Shown in pieces: positions 1-26,265 of a stretch of 26,265 nt of DNA. The notes beneath the pieces were generated by a model, which had not been told where the DNA came from, made no database searches, and saw only the letters and a program-made list of their open reading frames with translations. The first letter of the stretch is position 1. Every line of letters starts with the position of its first letter. Position numbers and translations under genes: made by a program. Source of the stretch: an uncultured Dehalococcoidaceae bacterium (GTDB taxonomy: Bacteria > Chloroflexota > Dehalococcoidia > Dehalococcoidales > RBG-16-60-22); contig CAYOKF010000002.1 in NCBI GenBank assembly GCA_964404475.1, positions 1-26,265 of the forward strand. The letters run 5' to 3'.

Positions 1-1938
1 GAAAATAGGGTATTCGACCCTCCTGAGGAATTACATAAAAAAGCGAATATTAAAAGCTTAGATGAGTACCAGAAAATATACCGGAGGTCGATTGATGATC
101 CGGAGGGTTTCTGGGGTGATCTTGCTGAAGAGGATCTGGAGTGGTTCAAAAAGTGGGACAAGGTACTGGTTGAAGACTTTAAAGAAGCCAGACATGAATG
201 GTTTGTTGGTGGCAAGATCAATGTTTGCCACAACTGTTTGGACAGGCATCTCAGGACCTGGAGGAAGAATAAAGCGGCAATAATCTGGGAAGGGGATATT
301 GGTGATGTCAGGGTTCTGACTTATCAGCAGCTTTACCGTGAGGTATGCAAGTTTTCCAGGGTATTACGGAAAGCTGGTGTCAATAAAGGAGACCGTGTAT
401 CCATCTATCTACCGATGGTTCCTGAATTACCGATAGCAATGTTAGCCTGTGCCCGGATTGGTGCTGTTCACAGCGTTGTTTTCGGTGGTTTCAGCGCCGA
501 TGCCTTGAGAGACAGGGTGCTTGATTGCGGAGCCAAAGTGCTGGTCTGTTGTGATGGTTACTATCGTAGTGGTAAGGTCATCCGCAGTAAAGACAATGCT
601 GACCAGGCACTTGATGCATGTCCTGATGTAAAGAAGGTGTTTGTGGTGCAGAGGGCTGGAATCGGTGTCAATATGAAAGAAAAGCGTGACCGCTGGTGGC
701 ACGATGAGATGGCTGCTGAAGACGTCAAACCGTCATGTGATGTTGAAGTCATGGACTCGGAGGATCCTCTCTTCATTCTATATACCAGTGGTAGCACCGG
801 AAAGCCGAAGGGAGTGATGCATACTCAGGCCGGTTATTTGCTATACGTCATGCAGACACTGAAATGGATATTTGACGCCAAAGAGGAAGATACTTACTGG
901 TGCACGGCGGACATTGGCTGGGTAACCGGGCACAGTTATATTGTCTATGGTCCTCTGGCGCTGGGTATGACCAGCGTGGTTTTTGAAGGCGTGCCCACGT
1001 ATCCCCATGCGGACAGGTTCTGGGACATAGTGGAAAAGTATAATATCAATATTTTCTATACGGCTCCTACCGCGATACGGGCCATAATGCGTGAAGGGGA
1101 AGATTGGCCCAACAAGCATGACATGTCATCACTGCGTGTTTTAGGCACGGTGGGTGAGCCGATTAATCCTGAAGCCTGGATGTGGTACTATAACGTCATC
1201 GGCAAGGGCCGGTGCCCGATTGTTGATACCTGGTGGCAGACGGAGACGGGAGGGATACTTATCAGTACGCTCCCTGGAGCGATGCCTACCAAACCTGGCT
1301 CGGCCGGGATGCCCTTTGTTGGTATTGATCCGGCGGTATTGCGGGACGACGGCACACTGGCTGGCGTTGATGAGGGCGGTTATTTAGTGATAAAAAAGCC
1401 CTGGCCGGGCTTGATGCGGGGCGTATTTGGTGAGCCGGAACGCTTTAAAGAGACTTACTTTAATCGTTTCCCTGGTATGTATACCTCTGGAGATGGTGCC
1501 AGAGTAGATAAAGATGGCTACTACTGGTTGATGGGGCGCATTGATGATGTCATTAACGTCTCCGGGCACCGCATTGGAACAGCTGAGGTTGAGAGCGCTC
1601 TGGTATCCCACCCCAAAGTGGCCGAGGCTGCCGTGGTTGGCATGCCGCATGAGGTCAAGGGGCAGGGGATCTATGCTTATGTGACGCTGAAGATTGGAGA
1701 GCAGCCGTCTGATGAGCTCAAAAAAGAGCTGGTGACTCACGTGCGGAAAGAAATCGGCCCGATAGCCACCCCGGACAGGATTCAGTTCACCGATGCTTTG
1801 CCCAAGACCCGGAGCGGCAAGATCATGCGGCGGATACTGGTGAAAATTGCCAGTGGAGATACTAATCTGGGTGATATCAGTACTCTCGCTGACCCGTCAG
1901 TGGTGGATAGTCTGGTAGAGGACAGACAAAGCAACTGA
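1..1938 (+). CDS. acs: Acetyl-CoA synthetase, AMP-forming (5'-truncated by the window edge)
   Basis: Frame +1 is open from base 1 ([39 protein letters not shown]...), so the gene begins before the track's start at 238. Motifs: [35 protein letters not shown] and [11 protein letters not shown] with the catalytic Lys. Confidence 0.97.
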
Positions 1939-1974
1939 TATTTTGGAAGCAGGATATGGAGGATTAGATACTAT

Positions 1975-2535
1975 ATGGAGAAAGACAGAGTAGAATGGGG
2001 CAATCCTGGAGCCCTTGGTTTAGCTTGTTTCGGTTTTACCACGATACTACTGCAGATACATAATATAGGTTTGATTGATAGTGTATTACCTCTGGTTTAT
2101 GGCTTTTTCTGGGGAGGGGCGGCCCAAGTTCTGGCTGGCATTATCGATGGAAGGCGAGGGGATAGCTTTGGCATGACCGCTTTCATTTCCTTTGGTTTCT
2201 TCTGGATAGGTCTGAGTTTTGCTTTTCTTCTTCAGTGGTTGGGAGTGGTGGCGCTGGATAATACCGGTCTGGCCTGGCTATGTATTTGCTGGGGGGTGTT
2301 TACCGCTTATATGGCGCTGGCTACTTTTAAGATATCAGTAGCCCACGCTGTGATATTCATTACCTTGGTTGTATTATTTGCCCTGTTAGCCCTGCATTTT
2401 TACGGTGTGCTGCCGGCAGTTGTTGCCGGGGTTGAGGGAATAATCTGTGGCGGCGCTGCGGTATACACTTCAGCGGCGGTTATCCTAAAAGAGAAGTACT
2501 GCCGGTGGGTGATTCCCATTGGCCTGTTCGAATAA
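1975..2535 (+). CDS. satP: GPR1/FUN34/YaaH (SatP/AceTr) family acetate uptake channel
   Basis: 186 aa with about 6 hydrophobic segments. N-terminal NPGALGLACFG matches the family NPAPLGL motif. It lies directly downstream of acs, with GGAGG upstream of the start. Confidence 0.85.
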   Translation: MEKDRVEWGNPGALGLACFGFTTILLQIHNIGLIDSVLPLVYGFFWGGAAQVLAGIIDGRRGDSFGMTAFISFGFFWIGLSFAFLLQWLGVVALDNTGLAWLCICWGVFTAYMALATFKISVAHAVIFITLVVLFALLALHFYGVLPAVVAGVEGIICGGAAVYTSAAVILKEKYCRWVIPIGLFE

Positions 2536-2574
2536 GAAAAGAGCTTCCGATAAGCATGACTGGAGGTAGATGAG

Positions 2575-4089
2575 ATGACATCAAGAGGGCAGGATATCGT
2601 CTCGGTTATCAAGCAGCAGATTGAGCAGTTTGGCATGGCGGTGACCATGGTGGATGTGGGGACGGTGATAGAGGTTGGTGACGCTATTGCCCGGATTCAT
2701 GGCCTGACCGCGGCGAAGTATAATGAGTTGCTACAATTTCCTAATGAGATAATAGGTATCGCTCTCAATCTGGAGGAAGATAATGTGGCGGCGGTAATTC
2801 TTGGGGACTATACCCGGATTAAGGAAGGGGACGAAGTACGTTGCACGGGGCGGATTGCCGAGGTGCCGGTGGGGGAAGAGCTTATCGGGAGGGTTGTTGA
2901 CCCCTTGGGGCGTCCTCTTGATGGCAAGGGTGCTGTTAAATCTGAGCGTACCCGGCCTGTAGAAAGGGTGGCTCCCAACGTAGTATTGCGCAAGTCTGTA
3001 GATACACCGGTGCAGACCGGTATCAAGGCTATAGACAGCCTGATTCCTGTCGGCCGGGGGCAGAGGGAACTGATTATTGGTGACCGTTCGACGGGGAAGA
3101 CGGCTATCGCACTGGACACCATCATCAACCAGAAGGGCGGAGATTTAATCTGTATCTATGTCGCTGTTGGACAGAAAGCGTCACGTGTGGCCCGCGTGGT
3201 AGCCACTTTTGAGGAACACGGCGCTATGGAGCATACCATTGTGGTGGCGGCTAACGCGGCAGAATCCGTAGCCCTGCAATACCTGGCTCCTTATGCCGGC
3301 TGTGCCATGGGTGAGGAGTTTATGGAGCAGGGTAAGGATGTCCTGGTAATCTATGATGACCTTTCCAAACATGCCTGGGCTTACCGCCAGCTTTCATTGC
3401 TGCTGCGCCGTCCTCCCGGGCGGGAAGCCTATCCCGGTGATGTCTTTTACCTGCACAGCCGTTTGCTGGAACGGGCGGGAAAGTACGCAGATGAGTATGG
3501 TGGTGGTTCCCTGACCGCTTTACCGATTATCGAGACACAGGCGGGTGATATGTCCGCCTATATCCCGACCAATGTTATTTCCATTACCGATGGCCAGATG
3601 TATCTGGAAGCAGACCTGTTTAATGCCGGTATCAAGCCAGCTCTCAATGTCGGTTTATCTGTATCACGCGTCGGCAGTAAAGCGCAGACCGGGGCTATGA
3701 AGCAGGTTGCCGGTAAACTAAGGATGGAACTGGCACAGTATCGGGAACTGGCTGCCTTTGCCCAGTTTGGCACTTCTGAGCTGGATAAGGCTACCAGGAA
3801 CCAGCTTGAGCGTGGACAGCGTATTACTGAGATTCTGAAACAGGATCAGTTTGTGCCTATGCCTGTGGAGAAGCAGGTTATGATTTTATATGCGGCGATA
3901 AATGGCCATCTTGATGATGTTACGCTGGATAAGTTGAATAAATTTGAGACTGATTTCCATCAGTTCATGGAGACGCAACATCCGGAAATAGGTAAGCCCA
4001 TTGCCGAAACGAAGCAACTTGATGATGAGACGGAGGCGGCATTAAAGAAGGCTATTGAGGAATTCAAGGAGGGCTTTTCCCTGGAATAG
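2575..4089 (+). CDS. atpA: F1 ATPase/ATP synthase alpha subunit
   Basis: Motifs [17 protein letters not shown] (Walker A), [22 protein letters not shown] and [16 protein letters not shown] at 2562-2567. Confidence 0.98.
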
Positions 4090-4128
4090 CTGCCAGGGAA
4101 GGGTTAATTAAAGATATGAGGGAAAAAT

Positions 4129-6467
<2,339 letters not shown>

Positions 6468-6468
6468 G

Positions 6469-6894
6469 ATGGCACCGATAAGAGTTGATATAGTTACCGC
6501 TGAGCGCTCCGTCTATTCTGAAGATGTGGATATGGTTGTTGCCCCTGGTGTTGAAGGGCAGCTGGGTGTTTTGCCGAAGCATACCCCGTTAATGACCACT
6601 CTACAGCCCGGAGAATTGCGCCTCAAGAAGGGCGGCGAGGAAGTATCACTGTCGGTTACCGGTGGCTTTCTGGAGGTCAGACCTGACCGGGTGATAGTCC
6701 TGGCTGATGCGGCGGAAAGGGCTGAGGAAATTGACCTGGCTCGTGCCGAAGAGGCCAAGCAGCGGGCGGAGAAACGCCTGACCGAGAGACGTGCTGCCGG
6801 AACTGATGAAACCAGGGCTGAAGCAGCACTGCGCCGCGCTATAACTCGGCTGACTGTAGCGGAAAGGGTGAAGCGAAAAAGGCAGCGAAATTAA
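6469..6894 (+). CDS. atpC: F1 ATPase epsilon subunit
   Basis: Motifs [15 protein letters not shown] and VTGGFLEV...[13 protein letters not shown], plus a C-terminal helical hairpin. It follows atpD with a 1-nt gap. Confidence 0.96.
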
Positions 6895-8379: not shown

Positions 8380-9478
8380 ATGCAGGAATTAAGAGATAAA
8401 TTAGCCGATTTGCAGTCCAGAGTAGCCGCAGCAATGGAGCATCTTTGACATAGATTCCTGTGAAAAGGAGCTCTCCCGTCTGGAAAAACAATCCGCCCAG
8501 CCCGAATTTTGGTCGGATCAGAATCATGCGCAGGATATCATGCGGCAGCTGGTAGAGACTGCTAAAATGGTCCAGGTCTGGCGGGAACTGGAAAAAAGAA
8601 TTACTGACATCGCCGAGTTGATACCCCTTTCGGAAAGTGACGATTCACTGCAAACAGAGCTGCAGACAGAGCTGGGTGAAGTAACTTCCCGTCTTGACGA
8701 ACTGGAATTCCGGATGTCTTTAGGCGGTGAGTATGATTCACGGAATGCTATTCTGGCGATTCATGCCGGCGCTGGTGGTACTGAATCTCAGGACTGGGCG
8801 GACATGTTGATGCGGATGTACCTGCGCTGGGCGGAGCGCCGTAACTACCGGACAGAAGTACTGGATGTTTCCCCGGGTGAGGAGGCTGGAGTAAAAAGCG
8901 TGGTCATTGCCATCAGCGGTGATTATGCTCACGGCTATTTAAAGTCGGAGCACGGAGTTCACCGTCTGGTACGTTTATCTCCTTTTGATTCTGACCATGC
9001 CCGGCACACGTCATTCGCTTTGGTGGAGGTTTTGCCTGAAGCTGAGGCTGATATTGACGTAAAGATAGAGCCTGAGGATTTGCAGGTTGATACGTTTCGG
9101 TCCAGTGGCCCGGGCGGACAGCATATGCAGAAGACAAGCAGCGCCGTAAGGCTGACTCACCTGCCCTCCGGGCTGGTAGTTACCTGCCAGAGTGAGCGTT
9201 CGCAATTTCAGAATAAGGAAATTGCTATGAAGATACTTCAATCGCGGCTATTAGATCTGGAGTTGACCAGGAGGGATGAGGAAAGAGCCAGGCTCAAGGG
9301 GGAAAGAATAGCTGCGGGGTGGGGTAATCAGATCAGGAGCTACGTGCTCCATCCCTATAAACTGGTCAAAGACCATCGTACTGATTATCAGACGAGTGAC
9401 ACCGATGCCGTGCTGGATGGTGACCTGGATGATTTTATCAATTCTTATCTAAGGTCGGTCATGGGGCAGGAGACATGA
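8380..9478 (+). CDS. prfB: Peptide chain release factor 2, about 365 aa, made by programmed +1 frameshift (join 8380..8445, 8447..9478)
   Basis: ATG 8380 (SD GGAGG 8364-8368) opens MQELRDKLADLQSRVAAAMEHL and ends in CTT-TGA-C at 8443-8449. The +1 frame continues DIDSCEKELSRLEKQSAQPEFWSDQ into the track ORF. The SPF recognition loop and the GGQ motif are both present. Confidence 0.96.
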
Positions 9479-10707
9479 TTAAAAAGGCAGCCTTGCTTGT
9501 CTTACTTATCCCGTTGCTGATATTTGCGTGGAACATAAGTCCGGTTCAAGCTGTTGATGGGCTGGTGGTGACCGGTAACTCGGCTGAGGTGGATTTTCCC
9601 GCCGGGATTATATTCCGCCTGTCGGCTCAGAGCGATGCCGAGATTAATGATATCCGCCTGCACTACATGGTGGTGAGGATGTCTCATGCTCAGGTCATCA
9701 GCGAAGTCCATGTTGATTTTGAGCCGGATACTGCAATTGAAACGGAATGGTTCTGGGATATGCGCAAGACGGGAGGGCTGCCTCCCGGCTCCGGAATGGA
9801 ATACTGGTGGACAGTAACCGATGCTCAGGGGAGCCGCGTTCAGACCGAGGTAGTAGAGGTCAGGGTGGAGGACAGGCGCCATGACTGGCAAAGTTTAACT
9901 ACGGGTAAAGTAACGCTCTACTGGTATGAAGGTGATGATTCTTTTGTCCGGGAACTGATGACCACTGCCCATCAGGTACTGCTTCGACTGGCGGCAGACA
10001 CCGGTGTGGTGCTGGAAAACGCGGTAAAAATATACATATATGCTAATCAGCAGGCTTTGCTGGAATCAATGATTTTTCCTCAGGAATGGACGGGAGGGGT
10101 TGCTTTTACCAGATATGGCATTATTGCGGTTAGTATCTCGCCGGGAAGAGCCGAATGGGGGAACAGGGTTATTGCTCACGAGTTAACACATCTGGTGATA
10201 CACCAGATGAACTTCAATCCCTATGGTGGACTGCCCACCTGGCTCGATGAGGGCCTGGCTATGTATGCTGAGGGGGAAGCAGAGCCGTCATTTGCTGACC
10301 TGCTGGTGGACAAAGCCAGAGAGGACGAGCTTATCTCGGTGCGCAGTCTGGCCAGCCCGTTTTCCGCTTATGCTGAAGAATCTATCCTGGCCTACGCGCA
10401 AAGCTATAGCCTGGTAAAATATTTAATAGATAATTACGGGCAGGAAAAGATGTATGAGCTGCTCTGTGAGTTTAAGGAGGGGAGCGGTTATGATGTGGCG
10501 CTACTTAAGGTTTATGGATTTGACATGGACGGTTTGAATGGTCTATGGCGGGATTACATTACTGCCAGTATTGAGGAAAGCCAGCCAGCATTGGAGGAGA
10601 AGCCGCATGTATGGGTGTTATTCGCACTTATTGTCGGGGCTTGTCTGTTAGTGCTTGTTATCATAGTATTATGGTATTATGGCCGTTTGGGGTTGTATCG
10701 CGGTTAG
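9475..10707 (+). CDS. Membrane-anchored zinc metallopeptidase, MA clan (Peptidase_MA_2-like)
   Basis: N-terminal signal peptide, HExxH (IAHELTHLV), downstream WLDEGLA glutamate motif and a C-terminal TM helix. It overlaps the prfB stop (ATGA). Confidence 0.8.
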   Translation: MIKKAALLVLLIPLLIFAWNISPVQAVDGLVVTGNSAEVDFPAGIIFRLSAQSDAEINDIRLHYMVVRMSHAQVISEVHVDFEPDTAIETEWFWDMRKTGGLPPGSGMEYWWTVTDAQGSRVQTEVVEVRVEDRRHDWQSLTTGKVTLYWYEGDDSFVRELMTTAHQVLLRLAADTGVVLENAVKIYIYANQQALLESMIFPQEWTGGVAFTRYGIIAVSISPGRAEWGNRVIAHELTHLVIHQMNFNPYGGLPTWLDEGLAMYAEGEAEPSFADLLVDKAREDELISVRSLASPFSAYAEESILAYAQSYSLVKYLIDNYGQEKMYELLCEFKEGSGYDVALLKVYGFDMDGLNGLWRDYITASIEESQPALEEKPHVWVLFALIVGACLLVLVIIVLWYYGRLGLYRG

Positions 10708-10898
10708 TGTTTCCCACTGATAATCAACTTTTGCTGATGTTCCTCGCTCTTTTTCCCGGCACTGGTATGAGGAGGCTCTTGTTCGTTAGAGGTAGCGCCG
10801 CACTGGATGCATTCAAAGTAAGTGCCGTAGCGGTCACTCTCCAGAGATAAGTCACCGCCGCAACGTTTGCAGGACTTGGTTCTCACGAGACAGAGCAT
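10704..10898 (-). CDS. Small Zn-ribbon-like protein (CxxC...CxxC), function unknown
   Basis: 64 aa containing CKRCGGDLSLESDRYGTYFECIQCG. Strong SD (AAAAGGAGAAAT) directly before the ATG. Confidence 0.7.
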   Translation of the reverse strand: MLCLVRTKSCKRCGGDLSLESDRYGTYFECIQCGATSNEQEPPHTSAGKKSEEHQQKLIISGKH

Positions 10899-11097
10899 AT
10901 TTCTCCTTTTGACGGGGAGGCGTTATATATAGTTTGTAGTGCAGCCCCGCTTTGTGATTTGATAATACGTCTTCCGTGCCGGTTGTTGTAGCTAGTTACC
11001 CCTCTCTTTTAGCGAAATATACTCTCAATTTGTTTAATGGTTATCACCTAATGATTCCCCTTGCTATCTGCTTGTTTCGGTGATAGACTTAACCATC

Positions 11098-11808
11098 ATG
11101 CGCGGACGTGATCAAAAGCGGTTTCACTCGATGACCATTCATGATTTGCCGCGTTCAGAGCGGCCTCGAGAAAGATTGCAAAGATTGGGAGCGCACGCGC
11201 TATCCGCACAGGAAATACTGGCGCTGATTCTGGGAAGGGGTATTTCCGGCGAGTCGGTAATGGTAACTGCCCAGAGGTTGCTGAGCCGCTTCGGCAGTCT
11301 CAACGGGATTGGTAGTGCTTCTTTAGAAGAGTTATCACAGGTGAAGGGTATTGGTCTGGCTAAGGCGGCCCAGATGAGGGCAGCTTTTGAATTGGCGAAT
11401 CGTGTTTGGAATTACTCCGAGAAAGGGGACAAGCCGTTGCTGAAGACCCCTGAGGATGTTATCGCTCTGGTAAATGCCCGGCTAAAGGGCAAGAAAAAGG
11501 AGCATTTTCTGGAATTGTTACTGGATACCAGGGGGCAGTTGATACGGGTTGCTGAAATTTCAGTGGGGAGTCTGGATAGCAGCATTGTCCACCCGCGTGA
11601 AGTGTTCCTGGAGGCAATATCGGCCAGTGCCGCCTCCGTTATCTTTGTGCACAACCACCCGGCAGGTGATACGGAAGCTTCTGAAGATGACATAAGGTTA
11701 ACGCAAAGGTTGACTGAAGCCGGGGAGATTATGGGCATCGATGTGCTGGACCACATCATCATCGGTGACGGGAATTACCTGAGCATGAAACGTGAAGGCT
11801 TGTTTTAA
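11098..11808 (+). CDS. radC: RadC / UPF0758 JAB-domain protein
   Basis: Motifs IHDLPRSERPRERL, an HhH motif (VKGIGLAKA), VHPREVF, HNHPAGD and DVLDHIII. The start is uncertain (11080, 11098 or 11131). Confidence 0.93.
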   Translation: MRGRDQKRFHSMTIHDLPRSERPRERLQRLGAHALSAQEILALILGRGISGESVMVTAQRLLSRFGSLNGIGSASLEELSQVKGIGLAKAAQMRAAFELANRVWNYSEKGDKPLLKTPEDVIALVNARLKGKKKEHFLELLLDTRGQLIRVAEISVGSLDSSIVHPREVFLEAISASAASVIFVHNHPAGDTEASEDDIRLTQRLTEAGEIMGIDVLDHIIIGDGNYLSMKREGLF

Positions 11809-11833
11809 GCAGCGCCGTCTTGAAATGGACTTG

Positions 11834-12757
11834 TTACGGGGGACATTTGGCACAGATAGACCTGAACAATGTGGTACTTAGATAGCGGTCTCCGCGGTCA
11901 GGTAAGATGACAACGATGGTGCCCTGTCTCATGTTCCTGCTAAAACGTAAAGCCGCAGCTACCGCAGCCCCGCTTGACATGCCAACGAAGACTCCTTCCC
12001 GTACCGCAAGTAGCCGCGCTGTTTCAAATGCTTCACCATCTTCAACGGTAATTTTTTCATCCAGTGCCCCCGCGTGGTAAATTGCCGGGACAATGCTTTC
12101 CTTCATGTTCTTGAGCCCCTGTATGGCATGACATATTACCGGCTCAACTCCTACGATTTTGATGCCCCGCTTTTTTTCTTTCAGATATTTACCCGTTCCA
12201 ATCAGGGTTCCGGTTGTCCCCATGCCAGCCACAAATATATCAATCTTTCCATCAGTCTGGGCGTAGATCTCCGGGCCGGTTGTTTCGTAGTGGGCAAGAA
12301 CGTTATTTTCATTATCGAACTGGTTAGGCATATAGTACCTGCCGGGCTCGTCGTTAAAGACCTGGCGGGCTTGTCTAATAGCGCCGTCAACGCCTTCTTT
12401 AGCGGGTGTAAGCACCACTTCCGCACCAAAGGCTTGAAGGGTTAGCTGTCTCTCCGTGCTGACGCATTCGGGCACAAACAGCTTCACGCGGTATCCTTTG
12501 GCGGCGCCTATCATGGCCAGGGCAATCCCCATGTTTCCCGATGTTGGTTCAACTATTGTTTTTTCCGGCGTAAGTTCCCCTGATTCCTCCGCTTTTTGAA
12601 TCATGTAGTAAGCGGGGCGGTCCTTGACGGAGCCACCGGGATTGTTGCCTTCAAGCTTCCCCAGGATTTTCACACCCGGGTTTCCGTTGAGGTTGGCCAG
12701 TTCCACAACAGGGGTATTTCCGATGACACTTAATAAGCTGCTTTTTTTATAGGTCAT
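11834..12757 (-). CDS. cysM: PLP-dependent cysteine synthase family protein (O-acetylserine sulfhydrylase)
   Basis: Motifs IGNTPVV, NPGGSVKDR (PLP lysine), EPTSGNMGIALA, GMGTTGT and GMSSGAA. The CysK versus CysM assignment is not certain. Confidence 0.88.
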   Translation of the reverse strand: MTYKKSSLLSVIGNTPVVELANLNGNPGVKILGKLEGNNPGGSVKDRPAYYMIQKAEESGELTPEKTIVEPTSGNMGIALAMIGAAKGYRVKLFVPECVSTERQLTLQAFGAEVVLTPAKEGVDGAIRQARQVFNDEPGRYYMPNQFDNENNVLAHYETTGPEIYAQTDGKIDIFVAGMGTTGTLIGTGKYLKEKKRGIKIVGVEPVICHAIQGLKNMKESIVPAIYHAGALDEKITVEDGEAFETARLLAVREGVFVGMSSGAAVAAALRFSRNMRQGTIVVILPDRGDRYLSTTLFRSICAKCPP

Positions 12758-15457: not shown

Positions 15458-15547
15458 TGGCGGAGGGGGTGGGATTCGAACCCACGGTCAGCTTGCGCCG
15501 ACAGCGGTTTTCAAGACCGCCTCCTTAGACCACTCGGACACCCCTCC
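15458..15547 (-). tRNA. tRNA-Ser (anticodon UGA), class II with long variable arm, CCA encoded
   Basis: Minus strand GGAGGGGTGTCCGAGTGGTCTAAGGAGGCGGTCT-TGA-AAACCGCTGTCGGCGCAAGCTGACCGTGGGTTCGAATCCCACCCCCTCCGCCA, 90 nt. Confidence 0.97.
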
Positions 15548-15551
15548 TGGC

Positions 15552-16799
15552 TTATTTTATCACCTTTTCGCCCACCATCCCCTGTAACACCTCGGGAACT
15601 ACTATGCTGCCGTCAGCCTGCTGGTAGTTCTCCATGACAGCGATGAGCACACGGGGCAGAGCCAGCCCGGAACCATTGAGGGTGTGGACAAACCGGGGCC
15701 TGGCGTCAGGGGCGGGGCGGTAGCGGATATTGGCGCGCCGCGCCTGAAAATCACCGCAGTTGGAGCAGGAGCTTACCTCCAGCCACTCCTCGCAACCGGG
15801 AGCCCAGACCTCAATGTCATACGACTTGGTGGAGGCGAAGCCGAGGTCTCCAGTGCAGAGCTGGATAATCCTGTAGGGCAGTTCCAGCCTGCGGCAGACC
15901 TCTTCGGCGGCACTGACCATTTTCTCCAGCTCATCATTGGAGTTTTCCGGCTCGGTGAATTTATAGAGCTCAACCTTGTCAAACTGGTGACCCCGCTTGA
16001 TACCGCGGGTATCCTTCCCCGCTGACATCTTCTCACGTCGGAAGCAGGCGGTATAGGCGGCGTAATACAGGGGCAGTGTTCCCGGGGGAAGTAATTCATC
16101 ACGGTGGAGGTTGGTCACCGGCACCTCGGCTGTGGGCACGAACCAGAGGTCATCTTCTTCGTCATGGTAAAGATTATCGACGAACTTGGGCAGATTGCTG
16201 GAACCCACCATGCACTCCCGTTTTACCATGAATGGCGGATATATTTCTTGATAGCCGTGCTCTCTGGTGTGGAGGTCAAGCATAAACCAGATGAGGGCTC
16301 GCTGCAAACGAGCGCCGTTACTTTTGAGTACGTAAAACCGGCTGCCCGACAGCTTGACACCCCTGTCAAAATCAATAATGCCCAGCGACTCACCCAGTTG
16401 CCAGTGCGGGGCCGGTGCAAAGGCGAATTCTTTCGGCTCTCCCCAGTGGCGGATTACCACGTTGTCGCTTTCGTCTTTACCTACCGGTACGGAGGGTTGG
16501 GGTAGATTGGGCACCTGAAGGAGTAACTCTTCAAGCTTTTCATCCAGTTCTCTGACCTCCTCTTCCATCTCCCTTATGCTGTCACGCAGTTTGCGCCCCT
16601 CACTGGCGGCTGACTCGCCGGTTTGCCTGTCCCGCGAAGCCTCTTTGCGCGCATGCCTGAGTTCTTCCAGTTCCTGTATCTTCTGGCGGCGCTCAGAGTC
16701 AAGCTGTAATATCTCCTCAATCGTGGTAGTGTCCTGGCGCTTTTGCAGCGCCTCACGTACTGCTTCCGGGTTCTCGCGTATAAATTTAAGGTCAAGCAT
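15552..16799 (-). CDS. serS: Seryl-tRNA synthetase
   Basis: Motifs MLDLKFIREN, a coiled-coil arm, PTAEVP, FRREKMSAG...RGHQFDKVE, EVSSCSNCGDFQARR and TLNGSGLA. Confidence 0.98.
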   Translation of the reverse strand: MLDLKFIRENPEAVREALQKRQDTTTIEEILQLDSERRQKIQELEELRHARKEASRDRQTGESAASEGRKLRDSIREMEEEVRELDEKLEELLLQVPNLPQPSVPVGKDESDNVVIRHWGEPKEFAFAPAPHWQLGESLGIIDFDRGVKLSGSRFYVLKSNGARLQRALIWFMLDLHTREHGYQEIYPPFMVKRECMVGSSNLPKFVDNLYHDEEDDLWFVPTAEVPVTNLHRDELLPPGTLPLYYAAYTACFRREKMSAGKDTRGIKRGHQFDKVELYKFTEPENSNDELEKMVSAAEEVCRRLELPYRIIQLCTGDLGFASTKSYDIEVWAPGCEEWLEVSSCSNCGDFQARRANIRYRPAPDARPRFVHTLNGSGLALPRVLIAVMENYQQADGSIVVPEVLQGMVGEKVIK

Positions 16800-22440: not shown

Positions 22441-22665
22441 TTCTTGCTTGTTATATTATACATTATATTTCGCCTTTGCTAAAGATATACTGGCGTGATT
22501 GCCGCTATAAATGTGAAATACAGGAACACTGGCATTAAAACTTGCCATAATACGGAAACGGATATCTTCAGAGCGGGAATACCAACAATTACCTGCCAAA
22601 GACCAGCAAAACTATGCCTTTACGGTAGGCAGAAAGGCCACTTAAAAGTTAATTACTCTGGTTAA

Positions 22666-23841
22666 TTACAGTAATGAGGGTATATCTTTAGCTGCGTCTT
22701 CGATTGCTCTCAGCTTAACTTCGGTTTCTTCCTGCCTCTGTCTGAAACGGGGAATAAGACCGCTTGACTGGAGATAATAGTCCCTCACCTTTTCCACATC
22801 GCTCAGCTCAGAAAGAAGTACCGTGACGTCAAGTATGCCTTTTTCTCTGGGGTAATCGCCATTCCTGATGATAGCCTCCGGCGCCAGGTCCCGCATATAG
22901 TCGCCCAGTTCCTTAACCATGTCCATATTCATTTCCTTGCTTGGACCGGAGACAAGGTAAAGGGCTCTCCTTGAATCTACCGGGCTACACTTGAGTGAGA
23001 GTTCACTGATGGCTTCATCCATGGCCTGAATGCCTTTCTGAATTTCCTGGCTCTTCTTGCGGAAGTCACTTCCCCAGTCTCGGGGAAATCTGATTAACGG
23101 AACTGATGCTTTACCATAACCAATCACCGTCCAGCCGACCAGTGTCTGGATAATATCACCGGCATCAAGGAGCTTGGCACCGATATATTTGGACTTTTTC
23201 TCTTCACCGGCACAGAGCACGTTATAGAATGGTTCAACCATCATTGCGTTTATTTTAGTTAAATTGTTGGCCAGAGATGAATCCTTTCTGACATATCTCT
23301 GGTTATCAACCAGAAAAACAGCATCTGCAACACTGTAGGCAGATTTAAGGCAGGTGGCGACGTTATAGACTGTCCTTTCCTCGGTGGTTTCTTCATGTTC
23401 AAAGGGGAGGACAATAAGATTGTAGACTGGTTTATCAACATAACGTTCTTTTATGGTTTGTGTTATTACGCCAATGGAACCAGAGCCGGTACCGCCCGCC
23501 GAAGAAGCAATGAGCAGGAAGGCGTCTGTTTCGAAGAAACGCTTGGTAGTTCTTATGGCATCAATTACCTTATCCGCATCATCTTTGGCAATCTCTGCTC
23601 CCAACTCGTTGATCTTCCCCACACCATGCCCACCGGTTTTACGGCCACCAATCAGGATCCGGTTACGATAGCCTTTTTTGATACTGGTCAGTCCACTGAG
23701 ATCAGCAGCATCACTATTAACCGCAAAGGTACCGGTGATTATATCGATCCCGCGCCGGCTATGGGCTCTCGCGTTCATACGGGAAAACTCGTCAGCAATC
23801 CTGCCGCCACATTGCCCTAAACCTACAACCACTAATTTCAT
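22666..23841 (-). CDS. Tubulin/FtsZ superfamily GTPase, CetZ-like rather than canonical FtsZ
   Basis: T1 loop GLGQCGGRIA, GHGVG, signature SSAGGTGSG, PVYNLIVLP, VDN, T7-equivalent LDAGDIIQTL and GDYP. SD GAGGTG. Confidence 0.88.
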   Translation of the reverse strand: MKLVVVGLGQCGGRIADEFSRMNARAHSRRGIDIITGTFAVNSDAADLSGLTSIKKGYRNRILIGGRKTGGHGVGKINELGAEIAKDDADKVIDAIRTTKRFFETDAFLLIASSAGGTGSGSIGVITQTIKERYVDKPVYNLIVLPFEHEETTEERTVYNVATCLKSAYSVADAVFLVDNQRYVRKDSSLANNLTKINAMMVEPFYNVLCAGEEKKSKYIGAKLLDAGDIIQTLVGWTVIGYGKASVPLIRFPRDWGSDFRKKSQEIQKGIQAMDEAISELSLKCSPVDSRRALYLVSGPSKEMNMDMVKELGDYMRDLAPEAIIRNGDYPREKGILDVTVLLSELSDVEKVRDYYLQSSGLIPRFRQRQEETEVKLRAIEDAAKDIPSLL

Positions 23842-23868
23842 TTTTTCACCTCAGAAGTATTGAGTTAG

Positions 23869-24011
23869 GCTATTTTTACCACAGTTACATGAAAATGTCA
23901 ATTCTTATGTTGGGAATAATATAGTACAATAGTGCTACAAAAAAATATATTAGTAGATACCTATGGTTATTGAAAATCTGGGTGTCCTATAATAGAATGA
24001 GTAAAAATAGC
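23869..24011. promoter_or_regulatory. Divergent promoter region with an inverted 11-bp GTAAAAATAGC box
   Basis: Minus strand: TTGACA (23901-23896), N17, TAAAAA with an upstream TG. Plus strand: TTGAAA (23970-23975), N17, TAGAAT (23993-23998). The box lies at 23869-23879 (-) and 24001-24011 (+). Confidence 0.5.
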
Positions 24012-24027
24012 AAGGGTGGTTTGGTAA

Positions 24028-26265
24028 TTGTCTGCTGAATTACGCGAGGATGTGGAAGGTAATATCGGGGCTTTTGAGAAAGCCGTAGCCAGGGCCGAAG
24101 TGCTAAGCAAAGCTGCACGCGAGGCGGCTGAGGTTTCAACGAAGGCTGCTCAAGATGCAATAAGGCGGGCGGAGAAAATAAGCCGTGAGTCTAAAGAGGC
24201 AGCCGAGGCGTCAGCACGGGCTGCGCAGGAAACGATAGACAGGGCTGAGAAAATAGCCAGGGAGGCTCAGGAATCCGCCTTGGCCGCTATAAAAACTGCG
24301 CAAGAAGCGGTAAGCCGTGCCGAGGAGGCGGCCAAAGCTCCAAAAGATACAGCCAAAGCAACGACCGCAGCCTTTCAGGAAGCAATAAAACGTGCTGAAG
24401 AAATAAGCAAGGAAGCTATGGAAGCGGCTGAGATTTCTCTGCGAACTTCTCAAGAAGGATTAGCCAATGTTGAGGAGATAAGCCAGGGAGCTAAAGAGGC
24501 GGCGGAGACAGCTAGAAAGGCTTCACAGGACGCGGTAAGAAGGGCCGATGAAGCGGGCAAGGCAGCCAAGGAAGCTTCCGAGGTATCGGTACGGGCCTCA
24601 CGGGAAGCGACCAACCGTGCTGAAAAGGCTAGCCGGGAAGCTAAAGTATCCAGTGATGAAGCCACTAAAGCTGCCCAGGAAGCAGCTAGCCGGGCGGAAA
24701 GAACAAGTAAAACGGTCAGGGAGTCAGCGGAGGCAGCGGCAAGGGCTGTCCAGGAATCAAGTAACCGCGCTGAAGCAACGAGCAAACTGGCTAGAGAAGT
24801 TGCTGACGCTTCGTTGAAGGCTTCTCAGGGTATAATCGCGCGTACGGAGCAGATAAGTAAAGAGTCAAAAGAAGCTGCCGAGACGTCAAGAAGAGAAAAC
24901 CGGGAGGCATTAAGCAAGATTGCAGAAGTAGAGAGAGAGACCAGGGAATCAACCGAATCATTGCTTAGGATGTCACAGGAATCTGTAGAGACAGCGAAGG
25001 GAGTTTCCCAAGAGGCAATAAAACGGGCTGAAGAGGTTGGCCAGGAAGCCAGAGAGTCAGCGGAAACATCCGCCAGGCTTTTCCAGGAGGAACTCGCCAG
25101 AATAGAAGAAATTAACCGGGAGACCAGGGAAGCAATCGAGGCATCATTAAAGGAATCTCAGGAAGCATCCGAAAAGTCAATTGAAGCCTCACGTGAAGCG
25201 ATAGAGAAATCAGCTGAGGCCTCACGTGAAGCGATGGAGAAATCAGCTGAGGCCTCACGTGAAGCGATGGAGAAATCAGCTGAGGCCTCACGTGAAGCGA
25301 TAGAGAAATCAGCTGAGGCCTCACGTGAAGCAACTGAAGAGACAGCTAGAACCTCGCGGGAGGCTAGCGAAGAAGCAGTTAAAGCCTCTCAGGAAGCAAT
25401 AGCACGGGCTGAAGAGATCGGTAGAGAGGCCAGGGAAATGACAGAAGCATCTACCAAGGAATTCCGGGAAGCAATCACCAGAGCCGAGGAGATAAATCGT
25501 GAGGTCAGGGAAAATACCGGCACGTTAGCTGAAACGGTAAGGGAGGCGATTGAATCAGTAGCCAGGGAATCTCAGGAAGCAATCGCGAATATGGAGGAAA
25601 TGAGTAAATCTGCCAGGGACAAAGCTGAAGAATCGGTGGGCGTGGTTAAGGAGGCGACTGAGGCAGCAGCCAGTGCTGCCCGGGAGGCGGCGGAGGAGGC
25701 GAACAGGGAATTCCAGGAGGCAATAAAGCGGACTGAAGAGATTAGCAATGAAGCGAGGCAGATGGCTGAGTCAGCTACCAGAGAAGCTGAAGAGATGATA
25801 GCTTCATTAAAGTTAGCCGCTGAGGAATCGGCTGATTCGACAATAAAAGCGACCAGAGAAGCGGCTGAAGCGGCGACAAAAGTCGCTCAGGAAGCGGCGA
25901 GGATGTCAATCAAAGCCTTTGAGGAAACGATAAGCCGGGCGGAGGCGACGGGTAAAATAGCGCGAGAGGTAGCCGAAACGTCATTCAAGTCTTTTGAAGA
26001 TATGATTAAGAAGGCTGTCGTGAAGGGTGAAGCCCCCGTAAAAGGTGGTGGCGAGCCGCCGGAGGAATTGCCTGAAAAAGAGGTGGACAGAGAAGTTAAA
26101 ATTACCAAAAAGGCTGATAAACCTTCCGAAGCATCGATTAGAGTGTTTAAGGATGCGATAAAGCGTACCGGCAAGGCTGAGCCGAAGGAAAATCAGCCAC
26201 TGGCGGGAGCAAAGGGGGAAATTGATGCCCGTTTGGAATTCTTAGCCAAAATGTATGAGGAAAAG
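24028..26265 (+). CDS. Giant Ala/Glu/Arg/Ser-rich coiled-coil repeat protein, at least 746 aa, 3'-truncated and absent from the ORF track
   Basis: I translated frame +1 by hand. TTG at 24028 follows an in-frame TAA, and there is no stop up to 26265 (MSAELREDVEGNIGAFEKAVARAEVL...EIDARLEFLAKMYEEK). It is built of 25-aa and 11-aa modules, with no signal peptide or TM segment. Confidence 0.9.
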   Translation, partial: MSAELREDVEGNIGAFEKAVARAEVLSKAAREAAEVSTKAAQDAIRRAEKISRESKEAAEASARAAQETIDRAEKIAREAQESALAAIKTAQEAVSRAEEAAKAPKDTAKATTAAFQEAIKRAEEISKEAMEAAEISLRTSQEGLANVEEISQGAKEAAETARKASQDAVRRADEAGKAAKEASEVSVRASREATNRAEKASREAKVSSDEATKAAQEAASRAERTSKTVRESAEAAARAVQESSNRAEATSKLAREVADASLKASQGIIARTEQISKESKEAAETSRRENREALSKIAEVERETRESTESLLRMSQESVETAKGVSQEAIKRAEEVGQEARESAETSARLFQEELARIEEINRETREAIEASLKESQEASEKSIEASREAIEKSAEASREAMEKSAEASREAMEKSAEASREAIEKSAEASREATEETARTSREASEEAVKASQEAIARAEEIGREAREMTEASTKEFREAITRAEEINREVRENTGTLAETVREAIESVARESQEAIANMEEMSKSARDKAEESVGVVKEATEAAASAAREAAEEANREFQEAIKRTEEISNEARQMAESATREAEEMIASLKLAAEESADSTIKATREAAEAATKVAQEAARMSIKAFEETISRAEATGKIAREVAETSFKSFEDMIKKAVVKGEAPVKGGGEPPEELPEKEVDREVKITKKADKPSEASIRVFKDAIKRTGKAEPKENQPLAGAKGEIDARLEFLAKMYEEK
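24076..25995 (+). repeat. Degenerate modular repeat array: 19 x 75-bp (25-aa) and 15 x 33-bp (11-aa) units
   Basis: The motif (Q/R)EAI.RAEEI recurs every 75 nt at 24076, 24151, ... 24901, then at 25009, 25084, 25390, 25465, 25573, 25714 and 25921. The gaps between these are exact multiples of 33 nt. Confidence 0.85.
25183..25331 (+). repeat. Near-perfect 33-bp tandem repeat, about 4.5 copies (EASREA[I/M]EKSA)
   Basis: Unit GAGGCCTCACGTGAAGCGAT[A/G]GAGAAATCAGCT at 25183, 25216, 25249, 25282 and a partial copy at 25315. Confidence 0.95.

Follow-up and report, generated by a model that had tools for sequence, protein, structure and literature searches.

A conserved four-gene cluster in Dehalococcoidia joins two CetZ-like genes to two genes for helical proteins, a candidate cytoskeletal module

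Dehalococcoides and other Dehalococcoidia are reported to lack a peptidoglycan wall and to be disc-shaped. CetZ proteins have been treated as archaea-specific shape and motility factors (PMC9856176, PMC11621097). CetZ1 has been described as having a long M-loop with the hydrophobic tip LLSRL and a C-terminal tail, LESLF, which is needed for function, mutation of the tail abolishing it (10.1101/2024.04.08.588506). In a published phylogeny Dehalococcoidia sequences fall in CetZ-like groups outside canonical CetZ (PMC9871819). The DNA analysed here (the window) is an entire contig of 26,265 bp from an uncultured Dehalococcoidaceae bacterium (GenBank assembly GCA_964404475.1, contig CAYOKF010000002.1). 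Two divergent genes lie at its end. The first, tubA, is on the minus strand and encodes a CetZ-like protein. The second, cc, is on the plus strand and encodes a helical-repeat protein.

The pairing of tubA and cc is real and conserved, and is part of a larger four-gene cluster of Dehalococcoidia which also contains a second CetZ-like gene (tubB) and a gene for a short, partly helical protein (small). This cluster is probably a cytoskeletal module. A probability of about 0.6 is given to the reading that the window genes are half of the cluster and that cc and small encode dedicated filament-associated proteins of CetZ-like polymers. An initial annotation, made from the window alone, had proposed a module of two genes. 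The pair stood, but the unit was found to be four genes, including the tubA paralogue and small. The annotation also knew of no description of such a pair. No description of the tubA-cc pair or of the four-gene cluster was found in the literature searched, although an evolutionary survey had briefly mentioned CetZ-like sequences from Dehalococcoidia (PMC9871819).

A CetZ-like gene and its cluster

The tubA product is a member of the tubulin/FtsZ superfamily and, on sequence criteria, is CetZ-like and not a canonical FtsZ. It matched Pfam Tubulin (PF00091) at 105 bits against a cut-off of 33 (E = 7.9e-30, residues 3-182) and Pfam CetZ_C (PF21011) at 58.3 bits against a cut-off of 21.6 (E = 8.6e-16, residues 188-354). 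The best solved relatives were 4B46 (E = 3.5e-39, residues 1-374), 4B45 (1.1e-24) and 3ZID (7.6e-14). These are the structures of CetZ1 and CetZ2 of Haloferax volcanii and of a Methanosaeta CetZ; the PDB labels are FtsZ or tubulin/FtsZ. Among other solved structures the best FtsZ gave an E value of 5e-9 and the best tubulin about 5e-8. The score against the NCBIfam FtsZ equivalog TIGR00065 was 50.8 bits, well below the cut-off of 295.2, and no FtsZ_C match was found in the Pfam scan. The matches to CetZ_C and 4B46 bear out the CetZ-like tubulin of the initial annotation.

The GTPase motifs of tubA were intact and comprised GQCGGR, GHGVG, AGGTGSG (the glycine-rich T4 loop, superfamily signature GGGTG[ST]G), DNQ and the T7 loop LDAGDIIQT. 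Asp229 in the T7 loop is the counterpart of the catalytic E218 of CetZ1. The C-terminal peptide is KDIPSLL. Identity to CetZ1 was approximately 32-33%. Relative to CetZ1, tubA carries a 5-residue insert (FEHEETTEERT region), and the CetZ1-type long hydrophobic M-loop (LLSRL tip) is missing, an alignment gap lying opposite CetZ1 EPRKNNGGLLSRL. The label "CetZ-like" and not "CetZ" was used due to this low identity and to the position of Dehalococcoidia sequences in the published phylogeny (PMC9871819).

More than 6400 proteins related to tubA were found. The top 120 were all at least 80% identical, 390-392 amino acids (aa) long and from Chloroflexota or Dehalococcoidales where named. When one genome per species was searched, relatives were present in 154 stretches. 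The best 80 of these 154 loci were all from Dehalococcoidia metagenome-assembled genomes (MAGs), save for a few generic or odd record titles. The closest, at 93% identity, was an uncultured Dehalococcoidaceae MAG, confirming the Dehalococcoidia host supposed earlier. Identity across the best 80 loci was 69-93% for tubA and 54-77% for the neighbouring DnaX (full-length matches). Being more conserved than DnaX in the same loci, tubA shows the pattern expected of a polymer-forming protein.

The conservation of the pair was followed in both directions. In a forward test the window cc was used for tblastn in the best 80 genome loci obtained with tubA, and a cc orthologue (35-51% identity) lay divergently upstream of tubA in about 65. 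In a reverse test an alignment of 30 cc orthologues was used to fetch 80 metagenome loci, giving a pooled set of 160 loci. Of the 49 reverse-test loci whose upstream DNA reached 1.5 kb or more, 39 had a tubA-type gene divergently upstream of cc. A second CetZ-like gene, tubB, was convergent downstream of cc and followed by gap in 48 of 51 loci with enough downstream DNA. Between cc and tubB, on the cc strand, is a conserved open reading frame (ORF) of 162-187 aa, small. The dominant order in the pooled loci was dnaX< tubA< cc> small> tubB< gap< (X< T< C> s> T< G<), with tubA and cc divergent. This order was complete in 49 of the 160 loci and most others were truncations of it. Where flanks were adequate small followed cc (113/118), a tubulin gene lay downstream (95/95) and tubA lay upstream (98/110). 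The initial annotation had named loss of the pairing in relatives, or independent distributions of the two genes, as grounds for abandoning it; the pairing held. The most invariant link is that between cc and the convergent tubulin gene, not the divergent pair visible in the window. As the contig ends approximately 25 codons before the cc stop, half of the module lies outside the window. All four genes are present in L081, the metagenomic locus closest to the window (tubA 93%), and the window genome therefore almost certainly has them too, past the contig end.

Mean identity was 81% within tubA, 74% within tubB and 67% between the two. Both keep all GTPase motifs, and only five conserved columns set them apart. 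The motifs and tail were kept at 90% or more in 103 tubA and 96 tubB sequences, tubB ending in the same KDIPSLL as tubA. Single-copy tubulin genes located between gap and dnaX grouped with tubA. The small product, of about 170 aa, has a disordered N-terminus followed by a helical region with Ala-Tyr every 11 residues. Nothing credible was found for it in Pfam and PDB profile searches. One MAG contained two tubA-like genes (L064 and L070, CAYVOV01 contigs 9 and 8), neither with cc within 5-6 kb, indicating that some lineages retain tubulins without adjoining helical genes.

The surroundings of the cluster varied. In L072 and L153 the order was gap-tub-tub in tandem with small and cc adjoining, and L142 had another order. 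In L046, L049, L054 and L061 dnaX was displaced and the four genes were still together. In L158 and L159 the cc-small-tubulin trio was found amid unrelated genes, flanked by CN hydrolase or OAD-beta at one end and by rpsI/truA or NTP transferase at the opposite end. A hidden tubulin gene upstream of cc in these two loci was considered and rejected, the ORFs in question being the CN hydrolase and OAD-beta (oxaloacetate decarboxylase beta).

In the window, as in most loci, tubA immediately precedes dnaX, ybaB, recR and recO. This could be taken to indicate a system that acts on DNA, like TubZ/TubR or PhuZ, with filaments that move or position it. Such a system is highly improbable. Adjacency to dnaX is lost or interrupted in the four loci with displaced dnaX, in L158 and L159 and in Dehalococcoides mccartyi, while the link between cc and the tubulin gene stays. 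A functional link to dnaX was therefore rejected, its adjacency being dispensable. The 746-aa part of cc in the window is strongly acidic (pI 4.96, net charge -37), which makes DNA binding unlikely. The cluster lacks a TubR-like or other DNA-binding gene, and a scan of one spacer gave no centromere-like repeat. The genes, housekeeping-like in kind, are carried on the chromosome and neither on a plasmid nor on a phage, and the sequence is CetZ-like, not TubZ-like.

The helical-repeat protein and the divergent spacer

By prediction and composition cc is a long, cytoplasmic, nearly all-helical repeat protein. The full protein is approximately 770 aa. Orthologues were mostly 590-910 aa with 35-54% identity, and short forms of 497 aa (L080) and 487 aa (D. 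mccartyi) were also found. The part encoded in the window consists of 22% A, 20% E, 10% S, 9% R and 8% K. The TTG start lines up with the ATG of orthologues (MSAELREDVEGNIG compared to MSSELQEDVDNNIG / MSPELKEDVEGNIG). The N-terminal head has invariant or near-invariant columns at E17, V20, A21, A23, E24, L26, S27, A30, A33 and A34. It leads into twelve repeats (Table 1) of the unit I-S-K-E-A-K-E-A-A-E-x-S-x-K-A-S-Q-E-A-I-x-R-A-E-E. Self-identity peaked at lags of 25, 11 and 50 residues. In the C-terminal amphipathic motif R735, L736, L739, M742 and Y743 were invariant in 30 orthologues.

The hydrophobic period of cc is 3.57-3.62 (25/7 to 11/3), compared to 3.5 for a heptad. The apolar face is broad and mainly alanine, with about three larger residues per repeat and few large hydrophobics. 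Such a period and an Ala-rich stripe would suit a helical bundle, an amphipathic helix lying on a surface, or a coiled coil with weak supercoiling. A single-sequence AlphaFold model (mean predicted local distance difference test, pLDDT, 62) placed helices at residues 3-101, 106-204, 209-324, 331-533 and 539-665, followed by a disordered linker (666-700) and a C-terminal helix (727-745). The helix breaks fall at about 102-105, 205-208, 325-330 and 534-538, and P105 is nearly invariant. The breaks and this proline suggest segments of approximately 100 residues that may fold back in the modelled protein. The initial annotation had described a coiled-coil rod of ~95 nm. The protein is indeed long and predicted to be helical, but the length is arithmetic (663 helical residues × 0.1485 nm = 98 nm) that is valid only for a continuous extended helix. 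The rod is therefore only putative; the period is not that of a heptad, the face is Ala-rich and the model has breaks.

Searches with cc returned little outside its own family. PDB profile matches were all compositional. Foldseek with the model gave no homologue, the TM-score on the query being at most 0.21 (long helical bundles, F-BAR domains, a trypanosome receptor and chemoreceptors). A word-indexed homologue search gave only PAS histidine kinases, again compositional, and missed the known orthologues. Exhaustive HMMER against 1.84 billion representatives gave 86 matches, mostly fragments and none below 1e-30; low-complexity families such as this one are masked by bias correction. One of these matches (P0132) pointed to the D. 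mccartyi locus.

The head-to-head layout across a short AT-rich spacer had been correctly described. The spacer length follows from the alignment of the cc TTG with orthologue ATG starts, and orthologous spacers had a median of ~227 bp and a GC content of 33%. The sigma70-like promoter proposed on each side was upheld. A sigma70 scan is weak by itself (7 sites compared to 3.3 expected in 1.9 kb), and both promoters were conserved in about 100 orthologous spacers. The tubA consensus was ATTGACAtT-N-TaTGxTxAAAATA (104 spacers) and the cc consensus TTGAAAAAct-N-ctAtAaTA.AAT (101 spacers). The tubA promoter has an extended -10, TGgTAAAAAT, and a ribosome-binding site, GAGGTG, is located upstream of the ATG.

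The spacer contains two copies of an 11-bp box, GCTATTTTTAC and GTAAAAATAGC. They are perfect reverse complements, and the box therefore reads alike from either gene. Of 20000 shuffles of the spacer, 169 produced a perfect inverted repeat of 11 bp without overlap, which makes a chance origin unlikely. With at most two mismatches the tubA-side copy was present in 53/105 spacers and the cc-side copy in 13/105, the latter partly kept in one subclade as GTGTAAAACAA. The copies reported in the initial annotation are thus perfect, but a shared operator was rejected because conservation is on the tubA side only. The motif GTAC[TCA]A[AT]AA was found exactly 37 nt upstream of the tubA -35 in 31/105 spacers, compared to 1.5% in shuffles, and the window has a degenerate copy at about 23920-23945. 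In one subclade it could serve as a second promoter or as an activator or UP-type element.

Proposed function and genomic setting

The retention of every GTP-binding and T7 catalytic motif in tubA and tubB suggests that both probably form GTP-dependent protofilaments, together or separately. By analogy the KDIPSLL tails, which are placed like the FtsZ peptide and the LESLF of CetZ1, may serve as docking sites for partners. The likeliest role of cc and small is that of dedicated filament-associated proteins, which would scaffold, bundle or space the CetZ-like polymers or link them to the membrane. The cluster would work alongside canonical FtsZ/FtsA in reportedly wall-less, disc-shaped bacteria. 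A stronger proposal, that two CetZ-like paralogues (possibly as a heteropolymer) with the lineage-specific proteins cc, as repeat scaffold, and small, as its partner with a tyrosine stripe, make up a wall-independent cytoskeleton that sets the disc shape or organises the membrane, is put forward only tentatively. If true, a bacterial shape system of the CetZ type with its own filament-associated proteins would be seen here for the first time.

The cc-like protein in complete genomes from D. mccartyi cultures (P0132) has 25-28% identity to cc and the same architecture, with the C-terminal motif kept as RLEYLAKMY. Its gene is convergent with a CetZ-like gene whose product is 57% identical to tubA and ends in IPSLL. 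The locus neighbours are RidA, an SMC_N-like gene and rpsF-ssb-rpsR, and there is no small gene between the cc-like and CetZ-like genes. In L166 and L167 (JBDLLV010000001.1 and CP006730.1) a CetZ-like gene of 379 aa is convergent with a cc-like gene of 441-487 aa at 10001-12557. Prophage genes were located a few kb from the locus in some strains. P0274, which shares 62% identity with the CetZ-like protein of D. mccartyi, is labelled Candidatus Bathyarchaeota archaeon at NCBI; this could be a binning error or reflect inter-domain transfer.

In D. mccartyi BTF08 the tubulin-like btf_0551, FtsZ (btf_0595) and the neighbouring hypothetical btf_0548 were abundant in disc-shaped pure-culture cells, whereas barrel-shaped co-culture cells had little or none of them; the authors tied the altered morphology to reduced division proteins (PMC8163811). 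These proteomic data are the one piece of circumstantial support for a role in cell shape or membrane organisation. The cluster could also be read as a division accessory system, in which the CetZ-like tails dock FtsA/SepF at the division site and cc and small are ring regulators of the Zap/EzrA type. The joint fall of the tubulin-like protein and FtsZ in co-culture cells agrees with this (PMC8163811), as do the separate canonical FtsA/FtsZ pair of D. mccartyi (DET0342/0343) and the resemblance of KDIPSLL, kept in both paralogues even without adjacent cc, to the FtsZ peptide (DIPxFL type). We find a division role rather doubtful. CetZ1, the closest characterised relative, controls shape and motility and not division. 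The cluster contains no ftsA, sepF, division or cell-wall genes, and cc and small have no homology to ZapA-D, EzrA, SepF or ZipA.

Several points weigh against cc and small being filament-associated proteins of CetZ-like polymers. The analysis shows the family of tubA, the conserved cluster, the promoter layout and the repeats of cc; polymerisation, physical interaction and any role in shape, division or membrane organisation we infer from context. Nine genome loci with a tubA-type gene and upstream DNA have no adjacent cc (L010, L063-L065, L068-L070, L073 and L077). The D[IV/L]P[ST]L[LV] tail is retained in these loci, and its partner therefore need not be cc. No tubulin gene accompanies the short cc-like protein P0136 on its contig of 4.2 kb. 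A single bacterial class supplied all loci, and inheritance alone could therefore explain part of the synteny. The AlphaFold model of tubA, built on a shallow alignment (all members at least 80% identical), had a mean pLDDT of 48.5, which was too poor, and was not used. In strain 195 the hypothetical DET0586-0588, beside 'FtsZ' DET0589 and gap DET0590, co-vary and track solvent stress (PMC4340931, PMC5102406, PMC3986231), behaviour which also fits a stress or membrane-protection role. The order DET0586-0590 fits the gap-tubB-small-cc layout by position, and DET0587/0588 and btf_0548 are putative cc/small orthologues. With Pfam cc gave only sub-threshold matches to Phasin_2 (20 bits compared to a cut-off of 24.9) and ApoLp-III (19.6 compared to 36.3), and a weak match to an apolipophorin-III structure in PDB.

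These points leave room for neighbours without a shared function, in which the gene order is simply inherited and cc, and perhaps small, is an amphipathic protein of stress or membrane protection, comparable to LEA proteins, phasins or apolipophorins. The phasin and apolipophorin matches would fit, as would the 11-residue repeats and Ala-dominated apolar face of cc, the solvent-toxicity transcripts of strain 195 (if orthologues) and the origin of all loci in one class. Such a reading is unlikely given how closely cc stays with a CetZ-like gene, which it adjoins in all 95 loci with enough downstream DNA. The link outlasts internal rearrangement and three unrelated flanking contexts, including D. 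mccartyi where cc identity is down to 25-28%. In such loci the flanking dnaX and gap are lost and the cc-tubulin link stays.

Read as filament-associated proteins, cc and small are concrete candidate partners for a CetZ-type polymer, and almost nothing is known of CetZ partners. The CetZ-like protein is here a core gene of a bacterial class, duplicated, more conserved than DnaX and tied to two orphan helical proteins. The cluster bears on the means by which wall-less Dehalococcoides maintains a disc shape and on the role of its extra 'FtsZ' genes. The cc protein adds an unusual 25-residue (25/7) repeat to known helical periodicities. The four defined proteins could be taken into biochemistry, heterologous localisation and cryo-tomography.

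The features of the tubA-cc region are listed in Table 1. On the minus strand 3' of tubA are dnaX, ybaB, recR, recO, lysS and serS. The sole RNA gene found in the window was a tRNA-Ser (anticodon TGA) at 15458-15547 on the minus strand, directly downstream of serS (15552-16799, minus). A release factor 2 gene, prfB (8380-9478, plus strand), has a classical programmed +1 frameshift. Its short ORF (MQELRDKLADLQSRVAAAMEHL) stops at CTT TGA C (8443-8449) and the PCRF/RF-1 main frame resumes in the +1 frame. A co-directional block at 238-6894 on the plus strand encodes acetyl-CoA synthetase, a YaaH/SatP-type acetate channel and atpA-atpG-atpD-atpC of an F-type ATP synthase operon.

Table 1. Coordinates of features in the tubA-cc region of the window
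Feature	Position	Strand	Details
Weak terminator-like hairpin	22615..22631	-	After tubA, before dnaX promoter region; 5-bp stem then T run; consensus scan only
tubA, CetZ-like tubulin/FtsZ-superfamily GTPase	22666..23841	-	391 aa
Divergent promoter spacer	23842..24027		186 bp; 30% GC compared to ~50% in window
11-bp box, copy 1	23869..23879	-	GTAAAAATAGC on minus strand; coincides with -10/discriminator of tubA promoter
tubA promoter	23872..23901	-	-35 TTGACA (23901), 18 nt, -10 AAAAAT (23872); 10/12 consensus positions
cc promoter	23970..23998	+	-35 TTGAAA (23970), 17 nt, -10 TAGAAT (23998); 10/12 consensus positions
11-bp box, copy 2	24001..24011	+	GTAAAAATAGC; starts 3 nt past cc -10, over likely transcription start
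cc, helical-repeat protein	24028..26265	+	TTG start; 746 aa, partial, open at last base
cc N-terminal head	24031..24129	+	aa 2-34; consensus MSPELxExxExNIxDFEKAVARAExLSRAAREAA
Twelve 25-residue repeats of cc	24103..25002	+	aa 26-325; register unbroken
Tandem 11-residue repeats of cc (EKSAEASREAM)	25180..25347	+	About aa 385-440
cc C-terminal amphipathic motif IDARLEFLAKMYEEK	26206..26262	+	Acidic tail of ~20 aa follows in orthologues, beyond window

Comparison with known systems

The cc protein is below the family thresholds of both phasin and apolipophorin-III. TubZRC and PhuZ differ from the cluster in that the context here is chromosomal and housekeeping, the helical neighbours are acidic and no direct repeats were found in the window spacer.

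Archaeal CetZ is among the closest known systems. The tubA protein has the same Pfam Tubulin and CetZ_C layout, aligns to CetZ1 over its full length and has all GTPase loops, with an acidic T7 residue in both (D229 here and E218 in CetZ1). Both end in a short hydrophobic tail, IPSLL here compared to LESLF in CetZ1, and there are several paralogues per genome as in Haloferax. The differences are the bacterial host, the 32-33% identity to CetZ1, the 5-residue insert and the lack of a long M-loop. Archaeal cetZ neighbourhoods contain type IV pili, cofactor and sugar genes (PMC9856176) and nothing like cc or small.

Bacterial FtsZ belongs to the same superfamily, and the conserved D-I-P-x-hydrophobic-L end of tubA resembles its docking peptide. 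The C-terminal docking peptide of FtsZ is of the DIPxFL type. Also shared with FtsZ and its partners is the idea of a tubulin-like polymer served by helical accessory proteins, whether small or long. Unlike FtsZ, tubA fails the FtsZ equivalog, is without FtsZ_C and lies outside a division/cell-wall cluster. In Pfam and PDB searches cc and small were homologous to none of FtsA, SepF, ZipA, ZapA-D and EzrA.

Like crescentin, FilP and Scy, which are bacterial coiled-coil proteins resembling intermediate filaments, cc is long, cytoplasmic and nearly all helical, with non-heptad repeats (25 and 11 residues) and a conserved head and tail around a repeat region of variable length. Scy has a 51-residue repeat. 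The cc protein differs from all three in having no sequence homology to them, a period of 3.57-3.62, a core rich in Ala and not in Leu/Ile, and predicted helix breaks. To our knowledge none of the three is encoded beside a tubulin homologue.

A related gene arrangement is that of BtubA/BtubB/BtubC in Prosthecobacter. The Btub proteins are true tubulins, matching tubA at E values of about 1e-5 to 1e-6, and their accessory protein is unrelated. The paralogues described here differ from them in that both tubA and tubB retain the catalytic residues of T7 and share 67% identity. In each case a bacterium has two adjacent tubulin-superfamily paralogues and an accessory gene, and a heteropolymer is possible in both.

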